Assembly: GCA_039889305.1 (NCBI GenBank)
Contig: JAVVFV010000003.1
Location: 511-64,510, forward strand
Reading direction: 5' to 3'
Source: Candidatus Zestomicrobium tamdykulense
GTDB taxonomy: Archaea; Thermoproteota; Thermoprotei_A; Sulfolobales; NBVN01
Length of the DNA: 64,000 nucleotides
Shown piece after piece: positions 7,418 to 15,886 of the stretch (position 1 is the first letter of the stretch; the number at the start of each line of letters is the position of its first letter). The translations under genes were made by a program, and so were the position numbers. The notes beneath the pieces were generated by a model. The model ran no database searches. It saw nothing but the letters and a program-made list of their open reading frames with translations, and was not told the origin of the DNA.

Positions 7418-8011
7418 TTATTTCTTTCTGAAAGCTCCCAGATACTTCATTATTTCCTCATACACAGCCCCGTTAAGCAATCCATCATTTTTCAAAGTAT
7501 TGAAGAGCTGGCGTGCAGTCATCACGTAATGATACTTCATCCCGAGAGCCCTCACTCTATCTTCAGCGCCTTGCTCTCTATCTACTATGACTAGAGCTCC
7601 TGTGGGGATGGCTCCTGAATTTCTTAGTATTTCGTATGTCTTCATTATTGAGTCTCCGGTCGTGGCTACGTCATCAACTATGAGTGAGGACCTACCTTCT
7701 ACTTCCCCCTCAACCTGACTAAGCATCCCGTGATCTTTTCTCTCAAGTCTGACGTAAGCCATCGGTTTATTGGTGGCGGCAGCTATGAAGGCTGCTAGAG
7801 CTACTCCTGAAGTAGCTACACCTACTAAAACTTCGTAGTGTGATAGGTTGATTTTCTTGGTTACTTCTTCTATTATTAGCTTCATTATTTTAGGGTAGCT
7901 ATATATTTTCCTCATATCTATGTAGAATGGTGAAGTTATTCCGGAGCTTAAGACGAATGACCCTATCTTGACGACTCCTACTTTATATAGTTCACGAATT
8001 AACTCCTGCAT
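7418..8011 (-). CDS. pyrE: Orotate phosphoribosyltransferase
   Basis: F.LSSG..SPFYIDMR, YVRLERKDHG and the PRPP loop IVDDVATTG.S. Confidence 0.95.
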   Translation of the reverse strand: MQELIRELYKVGVVKIGSFVLSSGITSPFYIDMRKIYSYPKIMKLIIEEVTKKINLSHYEVLVGVATSGVALAAFIAAATNKPMAYVRLERKDHGMLSQVEGEVEGRSSLIVDDVATTGDSIMKTYEILRNSGAIPTGALVIVDREQGAEDRVRALGMKYHYVMTARQLFNTLKNDGLLNGAVYEEIMKYLGAFRKK

Positions 8012-8679
8012 TCCCTAACCCTCTTTTCCTGCTCGTAAATAATTTTTTGAAGAGCTTCCCTAGGATTAGGAGAATTAGTTACGGCTCGCCCTACTATCTC
8101 GTAGTCGGCTCCGGAACATATAGCGCTGCCTGGTTCAGCACCTTGAGCTCCAACACCTGGTGAGAATATCCTTAACTCACTACCTGCTAATTCTCTAACC
8201 CTACCGATGACTTCCTTCCTAGTAGCTGGTGCTACAACACCCCAGACACGTAATTCTAGAGCAACGTTAACGAACTCACTCAAGTGCTTATCAATAAATT
8301 CTGTTGAGCCTTGATGACTCATAGAAACCACTAATATAGGCTTAATCCCTAATTCTTTAGACTTCATAACAAGAAGATCTAGCGCTCCACGCCTACCAAC
8401 AAAAGCGTGAGATATTACTGCATTCACACCTGCGTCAGCAAGAACCTCAACCACGTAAGACATAATATCTCCTATATCAGCTAGCTTGAGATCCGCTATC
8501 AGAGGCTTACTACACACACTAAATAAGTTCCTCAAACTACTTACTCCGGTTCTCAGTACTAGTGGGAGTCCTACCTTAAACGAGGAAACTAACTCACATA
8601 AGTAATTAACACGCTCTTTAACCCAACTCTCAGGTTCTACTTTAGGCGGAGGATCTAACGCTACTACTACTTTACTCAA
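7999..8679 (-). CDS. pyrF: Orotidine-5'-phosphate decarboxylase
   Basis: VALD, ADLKLADIG, SPGVGAQG and IVGRAV. Overlaps pyrE. Confidence 0.92.
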   Translation of the reverse strand: MSKVVVALDPPPKVEPESWVKERVNYLCELVSSFKVGLPLVLRTGVSSLRNLFSVCSKPLIADLKLADIGDIMSYVVEVLADAGVNAVISHAFVGRRGALDLLVMKSKELGIKPILVVSMSHQGSTEFIDKHLSEFVNVALELRVWGVVAPATRKEVIGRVRELAGSELRIFSPGVGAQGAEPGSAICSGADYEIVGRAVTNSPNPREALQKIIYEQEKRVRECRS

Positions 8680-8905
8680 ATGCCCGCTTAAAAAACCACA
8701 GAAAAGTTAATAAGCTTTACTATGTTTTGATTACCAACATAATATTTTCAAAACTAGCTTATAGTAGTTTCTACTAGTTCTTGTCTCAGAAATAATTATG
8801 GAAGTTAAGACAATAATCCGTATAACCAACACGAAAAGAACATTATGGAGGATTTTCTGGTACTCCTCGAATCACTACTTAATTTAAATAAGGAAGATAA
8901 TATTA

Positions 8906-10138
8906 TTGATGGTGTTTAATATGATATCACCTGTTCTTAACTACAGGGGTGTCATTGAAGAAATCTCTGGTGAGATCGCCTTCCAATATATATCTCGTGC
9001 TAAGGAGCTGGCTTCAAAAGGCTTTAGCGTGATATCGTTCGGGGTTGGTCAGCCTGACATTCCTACCCCACCACATATAATTGAGGAGGGTAAGAAAGCT
9101 CTTGACTTGAGATATACAGGCTACACTGAAACTGAAGGCATTAAGGAATTGAGAGAGTCGGTTGCTGAGTACTTAAACACTAGGTACGGTAGTGATGTCA
9201 GACCTGACGAAGTATTGATTACTATGGGAACGAAAGGTGCTGCTTACTTAGCTATGGCTGCTTACGTAAGACCTAATGATGAAGTCATAGTTACTGACCC
9301 AACATATCCAGTATACTCTGAGTTGCCTAAATTCTTCGGTGCGAGACCTGTTTACGTACCTTTAAAGTGGTTAGGTAGTGAAGAAGGCTTTGCACTTGAT
9401 CTCAACGCTATCCATGAATCAATAACTAAGAAGACTAGAGGAATCGCTATAGTAAACCCACATAACCCTACTGGTGCTGTCTTTAGTAGAAGAGAAATCG
9501 AGGGATTGATGGATCTTGCCAGAGATTACAAACTCCTCATATTTGCTGACGAGATATACGATAATTTCCTTTACGAGGACGCTGATTTTAAATCATTCAT
9601 GAGTTTTCCTGACTGGAGAGACTATATTCTTTACTGTAACGGTTTTTCGAAGACGTTCTCTATGACTGGCTGGAGACTCGGTTACTTAGTGGCGAGGAGA
9701 GAAGTCGCCAAGCTACTTATCAAGCTAGCTGTGAATACGTGGTCTTGCCCACCCTCAATCGCTCAGAAGGCAGGTATAACAGCTCTTAAAGGAGATTGGA
9801 CCCCTGTTAAGGAAATGGTGAGGTTATTTAATAAAAGAAGACTAACTCTCTACAACGAGTTAAAGAAAGTAAAGGGCTTTGAGGTCTGGAGAGGTAAGGG
9901 TGCCTTCTACTTATTCCCTAGGGTAGCTAAGCTGCTTGACTCAATAGGCCTTGACGTTGAGGCATTCGTTAACAAGCTAATAGACGAGAAATACGTTGTG
10001 ACTCTTCCCGGGACAGCCTTCCCGAGAGACTTCGGTAAGAACTATATCAGATTTAGTTACGCTGTAGATGAAGAGAAAATAATTGAGGGTGTTAGAAGGA
10101 TAAAAGAGCTTGTGGAGGAAATAACAGCGAAGACTTAA
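8906..10138 (+). CDS. PLP-dependent class I/II aminotransferase (aspartate aminotransferase-like)
   Basis: GVGQPD, NPHNPTG, DEIY, PLP lysine in FSKTFSMTGWRLG, GAFYLF and PGTAF. Confidence 0.92.
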   Translation: MMVFNMISPVLNYRGVIEEISGEIAFQYISRAKELASKGFSVISFGVGQPDIPTPPHIIEEGKKALDLRYTGYTETEGIKELRESVAEYLNTRYGSDVRPDEVLITMGTKGAAYLAMAAYVRPNDEVIVTDPTYPVYSELPKFFGARPVYVPLKWLGSEEGFALDLNAIHESITKKTRGIAIVNPHNPTGAVFSRREIEGLMDLARDYKLLIFADEIYDNFLYEDADFKSFMSFPDWRDYILYCNGFSKTFSMTGWRLGYLVARREVAKLLIKLAVNTWSCPPSIAQKAGITALKGDWTPVKEMVRLFNKRRLTLYNELKKVKGFEVWRGKGAFYLFPRVAKLLDSIGLDVEAFVNKLIDEKYVVTLPGTAFPRDFGKNYIRFSYAVDEEKIIEGVRRIKELVEEITAKT

Positions 10139-10343
10139 ACTTACCGCATAACCAAGCAACCTTAATGTAAGTGGTTAAGCGTAATTAATTTCTTCCTACA
10201 CTTATCTTAGCCTTCTTTAGCGTCAAGATTTACTAAGTCATGAAGACTACAAACTTCATTGTTTTGAATATGAGTGTTCTAAAATTGGAGAACAGTAAAA
10301 CATAAAATATAATAAAATATTTAGCGTGAGAAATTATGTTGTA

Positions 10344-11774
10344 CTATTTCTTTGTCTCACCTACTTCAAAGATGTACCTAGTGTAGAAGTCTTTAATAAG
10401 TCTGATGGCAACCGGCATTAAGTACGCTACTGCTACTAAGTTCGGTATGGCCATTAAACCATTCATAGTGTCTGAGAAGTCCCAGAATACCGCGAAGAGT
10501 TCTGGAGATATTGCTGCAGGGATTATTGGGACGATCCACATAAACCTCCATATCCATTTCAAGGGTTTCTCAGGCAGTTTAAGTGTCTTGTTCAAGAAGT
10601 ATAGCCAGTTAACCTCACCGTACCATTCCCAGCTCAGGAGTGTTGTAAATGCGAATAATCCTAAACCTAAACCAAGAACAATTGGTGCGTATATCCCGTA
10701 AGCTCTGTGGAAGGTCTCCATAGCTAGTGCTGCCCCGCTTAACTTAGGTCTCTCTATGTATGTTCTAGCCACTACATTAGCTACGCCGGTTACACTACAT
10801 ATGACGAGAGTATCCATGAATACTTCGAAAATGCCGTACATGGCTGCCCTACCCGGGTGGTCTATAGTCATGTAGGCGTATAGGTTTGGTGCGCTGCCTA
10901 AACCTGCCTCATTAGAGAATAATCCCCTGGCGAAGCCAAACCTTATCGCTGAGTAAACTACCCAGCCTGAGAGGCCTCCTGCCGCAGCCTGCGGAGTGAA
11001 TGCGTAAGTGAATATCTCTCTTATTGCTAACCCGAAATTGCCGGCATACATAACCCATATACCAACCCCGAATATTATGTACCAGGTAGCCATGAAGGGT
11101 ACCAAGTAGTTAGCAACGTCGGCAATCCTTCTAACACCACCAAGAACCACTAGCGCAGTAAAAATTGCCATTACCACACCTACAGCAAGTCTAAACGTGA
11201 AGACATCAAATTCGTAATGAGTCGCAATATACTCAGCCGCTAAAGCTACGTTATTAGCCTGAACCATGTTACCGATGCCGTAAGCTGCTATGAACGCAAA
11301 TATAGCGAAGAGTACGGCGAGCCCGGGCCCGACAACCGGCACTAACTTAATATAGTATGGTGTGCCTCCCTCAACCCTTCCATCCGGGAGAACTCTACGG
11401 GACCACACACCCAGGGTTGCCTCAAATCCTTTTAGACCCATACCAAGTATTCCGCATATCCACATCCAGAATAACGCACCAGCACCACCTAAGTTTAGAG
11501 CTGTCGAGACACCAGCTATGTTACCTACGCCAACCGTAGCACCCATCACAGCAAACCATATAGCGAGTGGTTTGGCTTCACCTTTACCTCTCTCACCTTT
11601 ATACCACATATTCTTAAGCACTATACCGAATCTCCTAATTTGATAGAACATTGTATAGATGCCTACTGCTAACCCACTTCCTGCAAGAATGATGATAGCA
11701 GGCAAACCCCATACTAGCCCATTAACTAAGTACATGAAGTCTATTAATGACTGAAGAGGTTCCACTAATGGCAC
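10344..11774 (-). CDS. Sodium:alanine/glycine symporter (AGCS family)
   Basis: ATVGVGNIAGV, GGAGALFWMW, GIGNMVQAN, RGLFSNEAGLGSAP, FEVFMDTLVIC and MAIPNL. Confidence 0.95.
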   Translation of the reverse strand: MPLVEPLQSLIDFMYLVNGLVWGLPAIIILAGSGLAVGIYTMFYQIRRFGIVLKNMWYKGERGKGEAKPLAIWFAVMGATVGVGNIAGVSTALNLGGAGALFWMWICGILGMGLKGFEATLGVWSRRVLPDGRVEGGTPYYIKLVPVVGPGLAVLFAIFAFIAAYGIGNMVQANNVALAAEYIATHYEFDVFTFRLAVGVVMAIFTALVVLGGVRRIADVANYLVPFMATWYIIFGVGIWVMYAGNFGLAIREIFTYAFTPQAAAGGLSGWVVYSAIRFGFARGLFSNEAGLGSAPNLYAYMTIDHPGRAAMYGIFEVFMDTLVICSVTGVANVVARTYIERPKLSGAALAMETFHRAYGIYAPIVLGLGLGLFAFTTLLSWEWYGEVNWLYFLNKTLKLPEKPLKWIWRFMWIVPIIPAAISPELFAVFWDFSDTMNGLMAIPNLVAVAYLMPVAIRLIKDFYTRYIFEVGETKK

Positions 11775-11807
11775 CTCAATAAAATATTATATTTATGAGG
11801 TGATTTT

Positions 11808-12047
11808 ATGACGGAATTTGAGGTTCATTCAAAAGATAAAGACATAGTGATTATGTTATGGATTATCGGCATATTGGTTGTAAGTTTACTCACGATGACT
11901 GTCGCTTGTAGCGAGAATATTAAAGACGTTATTAGGGACGTAGGAATACATATTGGGACTGTTTTAATAGTAATACTCTTAGGAGTTGCTGCATTGTTTA
12001 TAGGAAGGGGTAGAGTCGAGAGAATTAGTTTATGGAAATACACGTAA
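11808..12047 (+). CDS. Small two-TM membrane protein, unknown function
   Basis: GAGGTGA RBS 4 nt upstream of ATG. The 79 aa contain two hydrophobic segments. Confidence 0.55.
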   Translation: MTEFEVHSKDKDIVIMLWIIGILVVSLLTMTVACSENIKDVIRDVGIHIGTVLIVILLGVAALFIGRGRVERISLWKYT

Positions 12048-12197
12048 AAATAAAGTTATATTTTTACATATTTTCAACCTGATTTAACAGATTCTGACAT
12101 TCTTTCCATAAAATGAGTTAATTTATTGAATTAATTGTTTCCTGACTGTTTAGATAAAATATTAAAGCTCTTGTAAGTTTTAGCAATGGGGTGTTTA

Positions 12198-13582
12198 ATG
12201 ACATCGATTCATACACAAATCCCGACTACTAAAAAATTACAGAAAGCCTTAAGGTTGTTAGCAAGTATAAGGAGTATGTCTCTTCCAGTCAAGCTTTCAA
12301 GTACTTTCCGATAGCGATTTCGAAAGCTAAGAATGCTAAGCTATGGGATCTCGACGGTAATGAGTATATTGATTTCCTGTCAAGTGCTGCTACATATAAT
12401 GTTGGTCATAGTAATGAGAAAGTAATCAATGCTGTGAAGGAGCACCTAGATAAGTTCATTCATTACTGTCTTTACCTATATCACGAGCCTGTGGTAGAGC
12501 TCGCAGAGCTTCTTGTAAGAATAACGCCCGGAAATTACGAGAAGAAAGTAGTTATTGGGTTAAGTGGGGGAGACGCTAATGATACAGCCTTAAAAGCAGC
12601 GTTAGTATTCACGCGGAGACCGAATATAGCTTCGTTCACTTATTCTTACCACGGCACTACCGCACTCGATATAGCTGTGAGCGGGTCTTTTAGTCCTGAG
12701 TTAAGAAGCGTTATTCCGGTGCACGGTGTCTACTTTCTAGAATACCCAGATACATACAGATGTGCCGGAGGTATTGAGGATCCTGTTGAGTGCGGAGAAT
12801 ACTACCTAGATAAGGTAGAGAAGTTCTTTAAGAGAAACGTGGCTGGTGAGTCATTCGCGGCTTTAGTTATGGAGCCTGTGCAAGGTGATGGAGGAGTTCT
12901 CATACCACCTGAGAACTTCATGAAAGGTATTAGGAGGATAACTGAGGAGTATGGGATGATCCTTATAGACGATGAAGTACAGACAGGGTTGGGTAGGACT
13001 GGAAAGCTGTTCGCTATAGAGCACTACAGTATCGTACCGGATCTAGTAGTTCTAGGTAAGGCTCTTGGTGGGGGGATGCCGGTCTCGGCGATCGTTGGTA
13101 GAAAGGACGTGCTTGAGTCAGCACCTCCACAGACATTCTTTGCTACCTCAGCGGCGCATGCAGCCTCGGTTGCTGGGTCTATATCTGCTGTAAAGTATGT
13201 TCTAGAAAATAACCTACCTGATAGGGCTCAACATCTAGGTACCTACATGTTAAGAAGACTGAACGAGCTTAAGGAGAAATATGAAATAGTTGGGGATGTT
13301 AGAGGCGTCGGGTTAATGATTGGTGTCGATATAGTTAAGAACAAGAAAACTAAAGAACCAGACAGGATTACTGCTCTAAAAATCATATGGAGAGCTTGGG
13401 AGAGAGGACTTATCATGATGACTTACGGTAAATACGGTAATGTGTTAAGGATAGCTCCTCCACTAACAATACCTAAAGAAGACCTTGAGAAAGGGCTTGA
13501 AATAATAGAGAACTCGATACGTGACGTAATTCGCGGCGTCGTACCTGATGAGGTAATAAAATATATGACGGCATGGGAGTGA
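12198..13582 (+). pseudogene. Class III PLP enzyme resembling the Thermococcales broad-specificity amino-acid racemase; one frameshift near the 5' end
   Basis: The track ORF (12434) lacks the N-terminus. The same frame is open back to 12233 (KITESLK...FKYFPIAI...WDLDGNEYIDFLSSAA.YNVGH) and is closed by TAA at 12230. An ATG at 12198 with a GGGGTG RBS lies in another frame and joins at the A6 run 12231-12236. Core motifs: EPVQGDGG, DEVQTG.GRTG, PLP lysine in LGKALGGG, GNVLRIAPPL. Confidence 0.8.
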
Positions 13583-13851
13583 CTTAAACTCGCTTAAAGA
13601 TCAACAACATTTTTACGAAATGAAACACTATTCTTAGAGTGAAGAATAGTCAATAGAGCCACAATACTAATCTGCCTAGATTTGGCGTATTAAGTGATAA
13701 TAATATGATGACGCTCTAAATAATGGTGTAAAACTCTTCCAGCAATTAAGGTCAGATATGGTTTCTGCTGAGTCATTGCTAATCCTTAGCTTAGAGAAGC
13801 ATTTGTCTAATGTTTTAGGATTAAGGCTAGAAAACAAGCTTCGTAATATAT

Positions 13852-15177
13852 ATGCTTTCTGACGTAATTTTATTTGGGTCTATGATGAGCACTACTTCAA
13901 GATACTGTTTAGCTTTTTGGTTTGTTTTATTTATAGGTCTTATCATGGTTTCCGCAATAACGCTCATAGCATTACCACAGGGTAGGGTAGGCGTTGTTGC
14001 CGAGCTAACATCAACCATTGACGGGGGTGCTGTTGAGGTTGTTTCTCGTGCAGTGAGTGAGGCGGTTGGCAGGTCCTCTGTGTTAATACTGTATATAGAT
14101 AGTTATGGGGGGTATCTAACGGCAACAGATTCTATAATAAAGATAGTTATGGAGTCTGGTGTGGTGACTTACGTTTATATACCTCCCGGAGGTAAGGCAG
14201 CTTCTGCAGGGTCTTTAATAGCTTTGTTGGGTAGGAAGATCTTCATGGGTGAGGCGTCAACCATAGGTGCTGCGCAACCAAGCCCCTCAGACGAGAAAAC
14301 AATTAATTATGTTGTGGGTAGGTTTAGGTCTCTAGCTACCATAGCTTTCAAAGGTAATGAGACTTTAGTAAGAATTGCTGAGGAATTCGTAACTAAGAAT
14401 AGAGTTCTGAGCGCTGCTGAAGCTGTAGTGCTAGGTTTCGCAGAACCAGCTAACAGCTTAGAGGAAGTAAGACAAAAATTAGGACTTGACGAATTAGTTG
14501 TGGTTGGTTATACAGCTTGGAATCACTTAATATCTGTGTTCTCAGTACCCATAGTAAGTTCAATAGCTCTCATAGTAGGTATTGCTTTAATATTTATTGA
14601 ATTTGTTCAAGCAGGTTTTCAAGGGTACGCAATTGCTGGTATTGTCTTGATATTGCTTTCATTATACTCTATGTGGGTAGTTCCTGTAAGCCTCTTTGCT
14701 CTCTCACTACTCATAATGGGGTTAATTCTCCTTCTCATAGAGATACTGACTCCAGGATTCGGTGCTTTCGGAATAACCGGCCTAATACTCATGTTTGTTG
14801 GAGCTTACGAAACAATAACTAGAGAGTCTTTCGGAATTCCATCCATACTACCACTAGTTGTTGCAGCAGGTTTCGCGATGTTGGGAGGTTTGATGATTTA
14901 CGTTGGGTATGAGGCCGGGAAAGTCAGGAGACTTAAGACTAAGACGCTTCGTGAGAAACTAATTGGTGAGGTTGGGATAAGTAAAACCAGATTAACGCGT
15001 GAGACGCCGGGCGTGGTTCACGTGCTTGGTGAGGACTGGACAGCATACTCTGTTGACGAAGTAATAGAGCCTGGGACCAAGGTTAAAGTAACTGATGTTA
15101 AGGGTCTAACACTTTACGTCTCTAAAATCGGTGAATTCACTAATGAGTCAGGAAGGTCTAGATTACAGGAGAGTTAG
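13852..15177 (+). CDS. NfeD family membrane-bound serine protease (stomatin operon partner); likely start ATG 13882
   Basis: IDSYGG, KAASAG (catalytic Ser), STIGAAQP, TM block with EILTPGFG, and C-terminal OB domain GEDWTA. Confidence 0.9.
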   Translation: MLSDVILFGSMMSTTSRYCLAFWFVLFIGLIMVSAITLIALPQGRVGVVAELTSTIDGGAVEVVSRAVSEAVGRSSVLILYIDSYGGYLTATDSIIKIVMESGVVTYVYIPPGGKAASAGSLIALLGRKIFMGEASTIGAAQPSPSDEKTINYVVGRFRSLATIAFKGNETLVRIAEEFVTKNRVLSAAEAVVLGFAEPANSLEEVRQKLGLDELVVVGYTAWNHLISVFSVPIVSSIALIVGIALIFIEFVQAGFQGYAIAGIVLILLSLYSMWVVPVSLFALSLLIMGLILLLIEILTPGFGAFGITGLILMFVGAYETITRESFGIPSILPLVVAAGFAMLGGLMIYVGYEAGKVRRLKTKTLREKLIGEVGISKTRLTRETPGVVHVLGEDWTAYSVDEVIEPGTKVKVTDVKGLTLYVSKIGEFTNESGRSRLQES

Positions 15178-15886
15178 AGAAGAATTAAGAAAAAAGATAT
15201 GGGATTTGATGGAAACAACAAACATAGCTAGATTCCCAAGACCAGTACATGGTAGAATACCAAATTTTGTTGGTGCCGAACAATCCGCGTTAAACCTGCT
15301 TAAACACTACTTAATTAAGACCTCCAAAGTAGTTAAAGTAAATCCTGACGCACCACAGAGAGCTGTACGTGAGTTAATGCTTCATACACACAAAAAAGTT
15401 GTGATGCCAACACCAAGAATATCTGAAGGTTTCTTATTGTTAGATCCTGACAAAATACCTACGAACGCTTACGACGTAGCCTCAACGATACAAGGAGCTT
15501 TCAGGTACGGTGAGCACGTAGACCCGCAGAACTTACCAACTATAGACTTAATAGTGGCGGGATCCGTCGTTGTTGACGTATTCGGTGGGAGGTTAGGAAA
15601 AGGAGAAGGATACTCAGAACTCGAGTACGGGATTCTCGTAGAGTGCAAGAAAATCTCTCCTGATATCCCAATAATGACAACTGTTCACGATATTCAGGTA
15701 GTGACGGAGAGAATACCGCTAGAACCGTGGGACTTCACGGTCGACTGGATTATAACACCAACAAAAAACATTCAAGCTAGAGGTCCTAAAATAAGACCTA
15801 AAGGAATTTTATGGGAATACCTAGAAAAAGATAAGTTAGCGAAAATACCTGTGTTAGATACGTTACTAAGACGAGGAGGTTGCTAG
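15131..15886 (+). CDS. 5-formyltetrahydrofolate cyclo-ligase family protein (COG0212); likely start ATG 15143
   Basis: RFPRPVHGRIPNFVGA, KVNPDAPQ, MPTPR, GRLGKGEGYSELEY, TTVHDIQ and DFTVDWIITP. Confidence 0.88.
   Translation: MNSLMSQEGLDYRRVREELRKKIWDLMETTNIARFPRPVHGRIPNFVGAEQSALNLLKHYLIKTSKVVKVNPDAPQRAVRELMLHTHKKVVMPTPRISEGFLLLDPDKIPTNAYDVASTIQGAFRYGEHVDPQNLPTIDLIVAGSVVVDVFGGRLGKGEGYSELEYGILVECKKISPDIPIMTTVHDIQVVTERIPLEPWDFTVDWIITPTKNIQARGPKIRPKGILWEYLEKDKLAKIPVLDTLLRRGGC

Follow-up and report, generated by a model that had tools for sequence, protein, structure and literature searches.

We analysed a 64,000-nucleotide stretch of contig JAVVFV010000003.1 of Candidatus Zestomicrobium tamdykulense (hereafter the window). 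The interval 10344–13582 contains three genes: an AGCS symporter gene on the minus strand and, on the plus strand, a gene for a 79-amino-acid membrane protein and a gene for a pyridoxal-5´-phosphate (PLP) enzyme. The host genome (G000; the window lies on its contig C15) is a 1.30 Mb metagenome-assembled genome (MAG) of 48 contigs that is 94% complete. Its closest named relatives are Zestosphaera MAGs, which belong to the family Desulfurococcaceae, and the Zestosphaera genomes G001, G005 and G006 were used as congeners for the locus comparison. The locus contains the following features.

10344..11774, minus strand: AGCS symporter (alanine/glycine:cation symporter, TC 2.A.25), 476 amino acids, intact (PF01235, TIGR00835).
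11808..12047, plus strand: small membrane protein, 79 amino acids, with two hydrophobic helices (open reading frame and hydrophobicity).
12159..12193, plus strand: putative promoter and ribosome-binding region of the PLP gene, with a TATA-like ATATTAAAG at 12159–12167 and GGGGTG at 12188–12193 (conservation).
12198..12236, plus strand: 5´ end of the PLP gene in the frame of the start codon (MTSIHTQIPTTKK), ending in an A6 run at 12231–12236 (orthologue comparison).
12233..13582, plus strand: body of a class III-fold PLP enzyme, 449 codons, clade A (defined below), a candidate racemase resembling the Pyrococcus horikoshii enzyme BAR, open and otherwise intact (PF00202, PDB matches, fold).

The gene layout agrees with the original prediction, and the motifs quoted there for the PLP enzyme (FKYFPIAI, IDFLSSAATYNVGH, LYHEPVVELAELLVRITPGNYEKKV, IWRAWERGLIMMTYGKYGNVLRIAPPL and PDEVIKYMTAWE) all lie in one frame, at 12233–13582 of the plus strand. 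The enzyme has the class III aminotransferase fold and matches PF00202 (Aminotran_3) with an E value of 1e-99 over residues 24–427. The best sequence match in the PDB is P. horikoshii PH0138/BAR (9wrf), with 526 bits and approximately 51% identity over the full length. The next matches are the Ala/Ser racemase ASR (9wqz, 343 bits) and the L. buchneri isoleucine 2-epimerase ILEP (322 bits), with an identity of about 37–39%. These three proteins, all racemases, account for the five best distinct PDB sequence matches, and the aminotransferases score lower (301 bits for the ornithine aminotransferase 7vno and 272 bits for E. coli GabT). A fold search with the AlphaFold model of the enzyme (predicted local distance difference test score, pLDDT, 80) returns the same order as the sequence search; 9wrf is the top match with a template modelling (TM) score of 0.86, and the ten best structural chain matches are all racemases.

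The catalytic residues are also of the racemase type. The Schiff-base lysine is K276 in VVLGKALGGG, which is invariant in our alignment (A1) and aligns with K291 of ASR, K280 of ILEP and the lysine of BAR. The second catalytic residue, which had been proposed as the point to check, is D219 in EPVQGDGG; it aligns with D234 of ASR and D222 of ILEP, whereas enzymes of the aminotransferase type have a glutamate. Glutamate is found at this position (EPIQGEGG) in the ornithine aminotransferase PH1423 and in its orthologue in the window genome (own_L004), and another paralogue of this genome (own_L005) carries EPILGAGG in the equivalent loop. In ILEP and ASR, the Schiff-base lysine is K280 or K291, respectively, and D222 or D234 is the acid nearest to C-alpha on the opposite face; the corresponding alanine mutants are inactive (PMC6047364). 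These features suggest that the enzyme is a racemase.

The alternative is that the enzyme is an aminotransferase, acting for example on alanine or an omega-amino acid with 2-oxoglutarate, and that it sends the imported amino acid straight to catabolism. The class III aminotransferase fold and the database labels of the relatives imply such a function, true aminotransferases are close by in the family (7vno, 301 bits, and TK2101; PMC9986279), and a class I/II aminotransferase gene adjoins the symporter gene at 8906–10138. However, no aminotransferase model in NCBIfam attains its cut-off on the enzyme; the 4-aminobutyrate aminotransferase model TIGR00700 gives 341 bits where 507 are required, and the remaining models for this activity fall far below their cut-offs. 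Like all the characterised racemases of the group, the enzyme also has an aspartate where the GabT and ornithine aminotransferase types have a glutamate (PMC6047364). The leading sequence and structural matches are racemases without exception, and in the trees the clade of the enzyme is sister to BAR and lies among aspartate-bearing lineages. We thus consider aminotransferase activity distinctly unlikely. 4-Aminobutyrate aminotransferase (EC 2.6.1.19) in particular was rejected on the TIGR00700 score and on the presence of aspartate, not glutamate, at the position of GabT E211. The original prediction expected automated pipelines to apply this label, and the relatives are indeed named '4-aminobutyrate aminotransferase' or 'aspartate aminotransferase family protein' in their source records. 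PRK08360 was considered as a marker of the BAR group and discarded as not diagnostic, since the query (500 bits), PH0138 (533 bits) and an unrelated paralogue (579 bits) all score below its cut-off of 608.

Two sister clades are recovered both by FastTree (202 sequences) and by IQ-TREE (55 sequences), namely clade A (support 99) and clade B (95–98), with a support of 99 for A+B; ASR, ILEP, TK1211 and E. coli GabT are absent from the trees, and their relation to the enzyme rests on PDB bit scores and alignments. Clade A contains the window protein together with proteins of Desulfurococcaceae, Thermogladius, Thermosphaera, Desulfurococcus and some Bathyarchaeota, and two Fervidicoccus copies. 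Clade B contains PH0138, Thermococcus proteins, one Fervidicoccus copy, Synergistota proteins and the second copies of Zestosphaera G005 and G006. Clade A as a whole is sister to BAR and is nested among lineages that bear the aspartate. Because Zestosphaera G005 and G006 as well as Fervidicoccus possess both clade A and PH0138-type genes, the two clades are, as judged from the trees, paralogues, and the enzyme is not an orthologue of PH0138. The view that the enzyme is of the PH0138 type rather than a 4-aminobutyrate aminotransferase therefore stands in part: PH0138 is its closest characterised protein by sequence and predicted fold, but with PH0138 included in the phylogeny the enzyme falls within A+B as a member of the sister of clade B, not inside the PH0138 clade. 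It follows from this position outside the PH0138 orthologous group that the 'broad specificity' proposed for the enzyme cannot be transferred from PH0138, whose type of gene coexists with clade A. A search for residues that discriminate the clades found just five positions that are conserved within each of A and B yet differ between them, and no clear specificity determinant among them. The window genome has four further class III paralogues and no clade B gene.

Clade B genes have neighbours of their own. In Thermococcus (L043:9350-10468), the clade B gene is directly followed by a class I/II aminotransferase-like gene, confirmed by Pfam, with overlapping stop and start codons. The same overlap with an aminotransferase-like gene, there recognised by a weak tblastn match only, is seen in a bacterial MAG placed with Synergistota (L051:9350-10438). 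The arrangement suggests that the clade B gene and the aminotransferase-like gene may form a catabolic pair leading from racemase to transaminase. Synergistota and Thermoanaerobacter also have clade B genes, implying that the clade has been transferred between domains.

The symporter belongs to the AGCS family, with a PF01235 match of 325 bits (E value 1e-96, Pfam) and a TIGR00835 score of 341 bits, which exceeds the curated cut-off of 272.65 (NCBIfam). It matches AgcS of M. maripaludis (6cse) with 243 bits, and a genome search identified it as the sole AGCS gene of the genome. In the AgcS structures, the pocket formed by I165, F273, T366 and W370 accepts glycine and the two alanine enantiomers only, and the I165A and F273A mutants let in valine and leucine (bioRxiv 10.1101/293811). 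The window symporter keeps all of N80, I165, Q170, F273, S274, E276, D308, T366 and W370 of AgcS, and the ten linked orthologues of the symporter are likewise identical to AgcS at the pocket positions and at the Na+ and substrate ligand positions. In contrast, paralogues in related genomes deviate at these sites (F273Y, Q170M/K and W370G). Because every pocket residue that restricts AgcS to glycine and D/L-alanine is kept, alanine is the likeliest cargo of the symporter. The general D-amino-acid uptake originally envisaged does not fit this restricted pocket, which points to alanine and not to a broad range of D-amino acids.

The small gene lies between the symporter and the enzyme. Its 79-amino-acid product matches no family in Pfam or NCBIfam, and an Atlas search returned only generic membrane-helix look-alikes. 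Its homologues, found beside the AGCS gene at loci of Zestosphaera, Thermosphaera and other Desulfurococcaceae, likewise have two hydrophobic segments, and their C-terminus carries a motif of the G(I/L)WKY type. Since the small gene remains beside the AGCS gene even at loci that have no PLP gene, this arrangement suggests that the protein may be a transporter partner of the symporter. The divergent AGCS start codon (GTG 11774) and the ATG of the small gene (11808) are separated by only 33 bp (11775–11807), so that the promoters of the two genes must overlap either coding sequence or one another.

The association of the symporter and the enzyme is conserved in evolution, as the original prediction of a joint unit would have it. 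Zestosphaera G001, G005 and G006 and Thermosphaera have the AGCS, small and PLP genes side by side, in Thermosphaera in the order of the window. Thermogladius, Desulfurococcus and several Desulfurococcaceae MAGs also have the AGCS gene next to the PLP gene. Across these loci the genes occur in divergent, convergent and co-directional (AGCS-small-PLP) orders. Clade A, at an identity of at least 62%, was found in 23 of 351 genomes of the class; 22 of these 23 have an orthologue of the AGCS gene, which is adjacent in 16, counts that come from related genomes and are not independent samples. Because the linkage outlives rearrangement, it indicates that the AGCS symporter and the clade A enzyme are probably functionally coupled.

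Several rearrangements and neighbours were observed at these loci. Compared with window positions 7999–15886, the G001 locus (L025) has the AGCS-small-PLP block inverted between the same flanks, an orotidine-5´-phosphate-decarboxylase-like gene and NfeD, and it is devoid of the class I/II aminotransferase gene found at window positions 8906–10138. The three genes behave as a movable cassette. At Thermogladius-type loci (L033:2854-3187 and L035:9544-10306), inserted HEPN-like and nucleotidyltransferase-like open reading frames, recognised only by their sequence motifs, separate the PLP gene from the convergent AGCS gene. Other transporters stand beside clade A or B genes elsewhere: a LIV-type ABC transporter in Bathyarchaeota, an APC permease in Fervidicoccus, and, beside clade B in the Thermococcus locus L043, a YkvI-like gene (377 amino acids) with an Lrp gene, an arrangement that matches the published PH0137-PH0138-PH0140 cluster. 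No Lrp/FFRP gene is found on contig C15; the eight PF01037 matches of the genome are all on other contigs. On one of these, two class III-fold paralogues (L002 and L006; C44:75177-79099) flank an Lrp/AsnC-domain gene (C44:77169-77366), an arrangement that may be a regulated amino-acid module. The AGCS partner is split by a frameshift in the single-contig genome G175 (L118, G175:C1) and is split, with a TAG codon, in G027 (L026, G027:C7); the PLP neighbour is intact in both. In G032, the AGCS gene (C1:95446-96219) bears two TAG codons, and the only match to the enzyme gene is of clade B type on another contig.

In the window, the PLP gene is interrupted near its 5´ end, and the frame repair implied by the original prediction turns out to be a real need. 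The frame of the enzyme body has no ATG, GTG or TTG until GTG 12434. The conserved N-terminus MTSIHTQIPTTKK, with ATG 12198 and GGGGTG just before it, is encoded in a different frame, and the orthologue P0004 (89% identical) starts with MSSTPTQIPTTKKITESL. The two frames meet at the A6 run 12231–12236. Three congeners have A7 at this place (...ACT AAA AAA ATC...), so that exactly one A is missing from the window, and the orthologues read MSSTPTQIPTTKKI(T/A)ESL across the A7 run. Upstream of the start codon, ATATT(A/T)AAG and (G)GGG(T/A)TG are kept in four Zestosphaera loci amid a diverging spacer; from their position, they would serve as promoter and ribosome-binding elements. Restarting at GTG 12434 would cost 67 residues of the main frame (approximately 80 of the full length), including the active-site motif DFLSSAATYNVGH.

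The body of the gene is nevertheless well preserved. Its remaining 449 codons are flawless, and the ratio of nonsynonymous to synonymous substitution rates (dN/dS) against three orthologues is 0.05–0.06 at dS values of 0.86–0.97, which is not above the values of intact pairs. Because the body is flawless and its dN/dS no higher than that of intact copies, the lesion must be very recent if it is not an error of the assembly. A genome-wide scan for mid-gene frame breaks at homopolymers found 19, compared with 26 at random control sites; this absence of an excess argues against pervasive homopolymer error in the assembly, but the scan is blind to N-terminal breaks such as this one and does not decide a single site. 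The window genome (1.3 Mb, approximately 40% G+C) has 539 A/T homopolymers of length 6, 56 of length 7 and none of length 8 or more, which is an abrupt stop. In the G001 orthologue (L025/L010, G001:C7), ACG replaces the start ATG, two extra bases lie just upstream, and there is no in-frame ATG, GTG or TTG before an internal GTG. Lesions of the 5´ end are thus present in two of the four Zestosphaera copies of a gene whose body is under strong purifying selection.

Two explanations other than a sequencing error may account for the break. The first is that the frameshift is genuine, with the enzyme gene recently inactivated in this strain and the module decaying as a dispensable accessory trait. 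One base has been lost from the A7 run relative to three congeners, the sole in-frame restart would drop the active-site motif, G001 has lost its start codon with no alternative in frame, and G175, G027 and G032 have a damaged AGCS partner; the homopolymer scan also argues that the assembly is not riddled with such errors. On the other hand, the low dN/dS and the flawless 449 codons require any inactivation to be very recent, and a single homopolymer miscall is possible in a MAG of 48 contigs. We judge the chance of a genuine lesion to be close to even, falling slightly on the side of doubt. The second explanation is that the A-run is a built-in switch, where slippage on AAA AAA, either during transcription or by −1 on the ribosome, brings back the reading frame at a low rate and so keeps expression low or variable. 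The shift required is indeed −1 within consecutive lysine codons, the A-run occupies codons 12–13, where a slip is free of cost to the protein sequence, the body is under strong purifying selection, and the start is weakened in a second congener as well. However, the A7 run is in frame in three congeners, which makes an ordinary gene the ancestral state; the zero-frame heptamer is T AAA AAA and not the canonical X XXY YYZ; and the A-run is missing from Thermosphaera and other orthologues. Such a switch is therefore very improbable.

Four known systems are closest to the module or its enzyme. With PH0138/BAR, the enzyme shares the fold-type I, class III-fold PLP architecture, the Schiff-base lysine, the aspartate of QGD(G/A)G and the C-terminal GNVLRIAPPL; it differs in belonging to the paralogous clade, in being frameshifted, in having no 'GY' insert and in deviating at three otherwise clade-conserved positions. 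In P. horikoshii, the cluster of PH0137 (a YkvI-type transporter), PH0138 and PH0140 (the FFRP 'DARP') is induced by D-allo-Ile (PMC13628549). Both loci pair a transporter gene with a BAR-family racemase gene for exogenous D-amino acids, but the window has an AGCS and not a YkvI transporter, an additional small membrane protein and no Lrp/FFRP gene on the contig. The genes are co-directional in P. horikoshii and divergent here, and the predicted cargo is glycine and alanine here and branched-chain D-amino acids there.

A coupling of an AGCS symporter with an alanine racemase is described for the ald-alr-agcS genes of M. maripaludis, which serve the use of D-/L-alanine (Moore and Leigh, 2005, as cited in PMC3475374). 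The window symporter has all the substrate, Na+ and pocket residues of AgcS (6cse/6csf); in contrast to that system, the racemase candidate here is a fold-type I BAR-like enzyme and not the classical alr product, and the module adds the small membrane protein and contains no alanine dehydrogenase. With ASR (PH0782, 9wqz) and L. buchneri ILEP, the enzyme shares the fold and the catalytic Lys/Asp pair, which was proven by mutagenesis in those proteins (PMC6047364). ASR provides an archaeal precedent for this fold serving as an alanine racemase. Both are more distant than BAR, as their bit scores and identities show, and the N-terminal substrate-side motif of the window enzyme is BAR-like and not ASR-like.

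We favour, with moderate confidence, the reading that the locus is an accessory module of Desulfurococcales for the uptake of small amino acids and the interconversion of their enantiomers, with the clade A enzyme as the racemase. The AGCS symporter, probably partnered by the two-helix protein, would import glycine and D/L-alanine together with Na+. The adjacent fold-type I PLP enzyme would most likely racemise the imported amino acid by a two-base mechanism as in BAR, ASR and ILEP, in which the Schiff-base lysine and the aspartate of the QGDGG loop act on opposite faces. The catabolism of L-amino acids could in this way draw on D-alanine, such as that of bacterial cell-wall debris. With the enzyme gene disabled at codon 13 in this assembly, the strain would have no such activity, or the base may have been lost in sequencing. 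Classical alanine racemase, encoded by alr, is a fold-type III enzyme, and no fold-type III alanine racemase was found in the 94%-complete genome.

Several observations weigh against this reading. As assembled, the start frame ends at a stop codon at 12312–12314 after approximately 38 codons, and the gene has no intact reading frame. The module is dispensable and decays in some lineages, since the enzyme gene is out of frame here and the AGCS gene is broken in G175, G027 and G032. In one family (f15) both genes are present and not adjacent, and some genomes have an AGCS orthologue without clade A. The pocket signature of the symporter (I165/F273/T366/W370, IFTW) occurs in 50 of 109 diverse representatives of the AGCS family, which makes it informative, only moderately specific and not unique. 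The enzyme and transporter predictions do not plainly agree: BAR favours large hydrophobic substrates, and the N-terminal active-site motif of the enzyme, SSAATYNVGH, is closer to TSAAVFNVGH of BAR than to AGAAAASTGY of Ala/Ser racemase. The same family interleaves racemases with aminotransferases such as PH1423 and TK2101, and the racemase activity of PH1501 is only slight (PMC6047364, PMC9986279). No characterised or assayed member of clade A was found in the literature, and Table 3 of PMC9986279 contains Thermococcales enzymes only.

A stronger version of the favoured reading can be formulated, in which the clade A enzyme, the AgcS-type symporter and the two-helix protein would constitute a D-alanine salvage system dedicated to this purpose in hyperthermophilic Desulfurococcales, the BAR-like enzyme would be the sole alanine racemase of the organism, the 79-amino-acid protein would be a hitherto unrecognised AGCS subunit, and the Zestosphaera poly-A tract at codons 12–13 might be a slippage switch. 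We regard this combination as rather doubtful.

The one route of D-amino-acid use known to us in hyperthermophilic archaea runs through fold-type I racemases that are filed under 'GABA/aspartate aminotransferase' labels, and we know of studies of such hyperthermophile enzymes in Thermococcales only. The locus extends a known theme, the pairing of a transporter with a fold-type I racemase, and corrects the annotation; it overturns nothing. It draws attention to a sister clade that is widespread in Desulfurococcales, is also present in some Bathyarchaeota and has a different conserved transporter partner, and to a small membrane protein that accompanies AGCS symporters. The orthologues of Thermosphaera and Desulfurococcus amylolyticus are cultivable targets, for which the predicted substrate is alanine.

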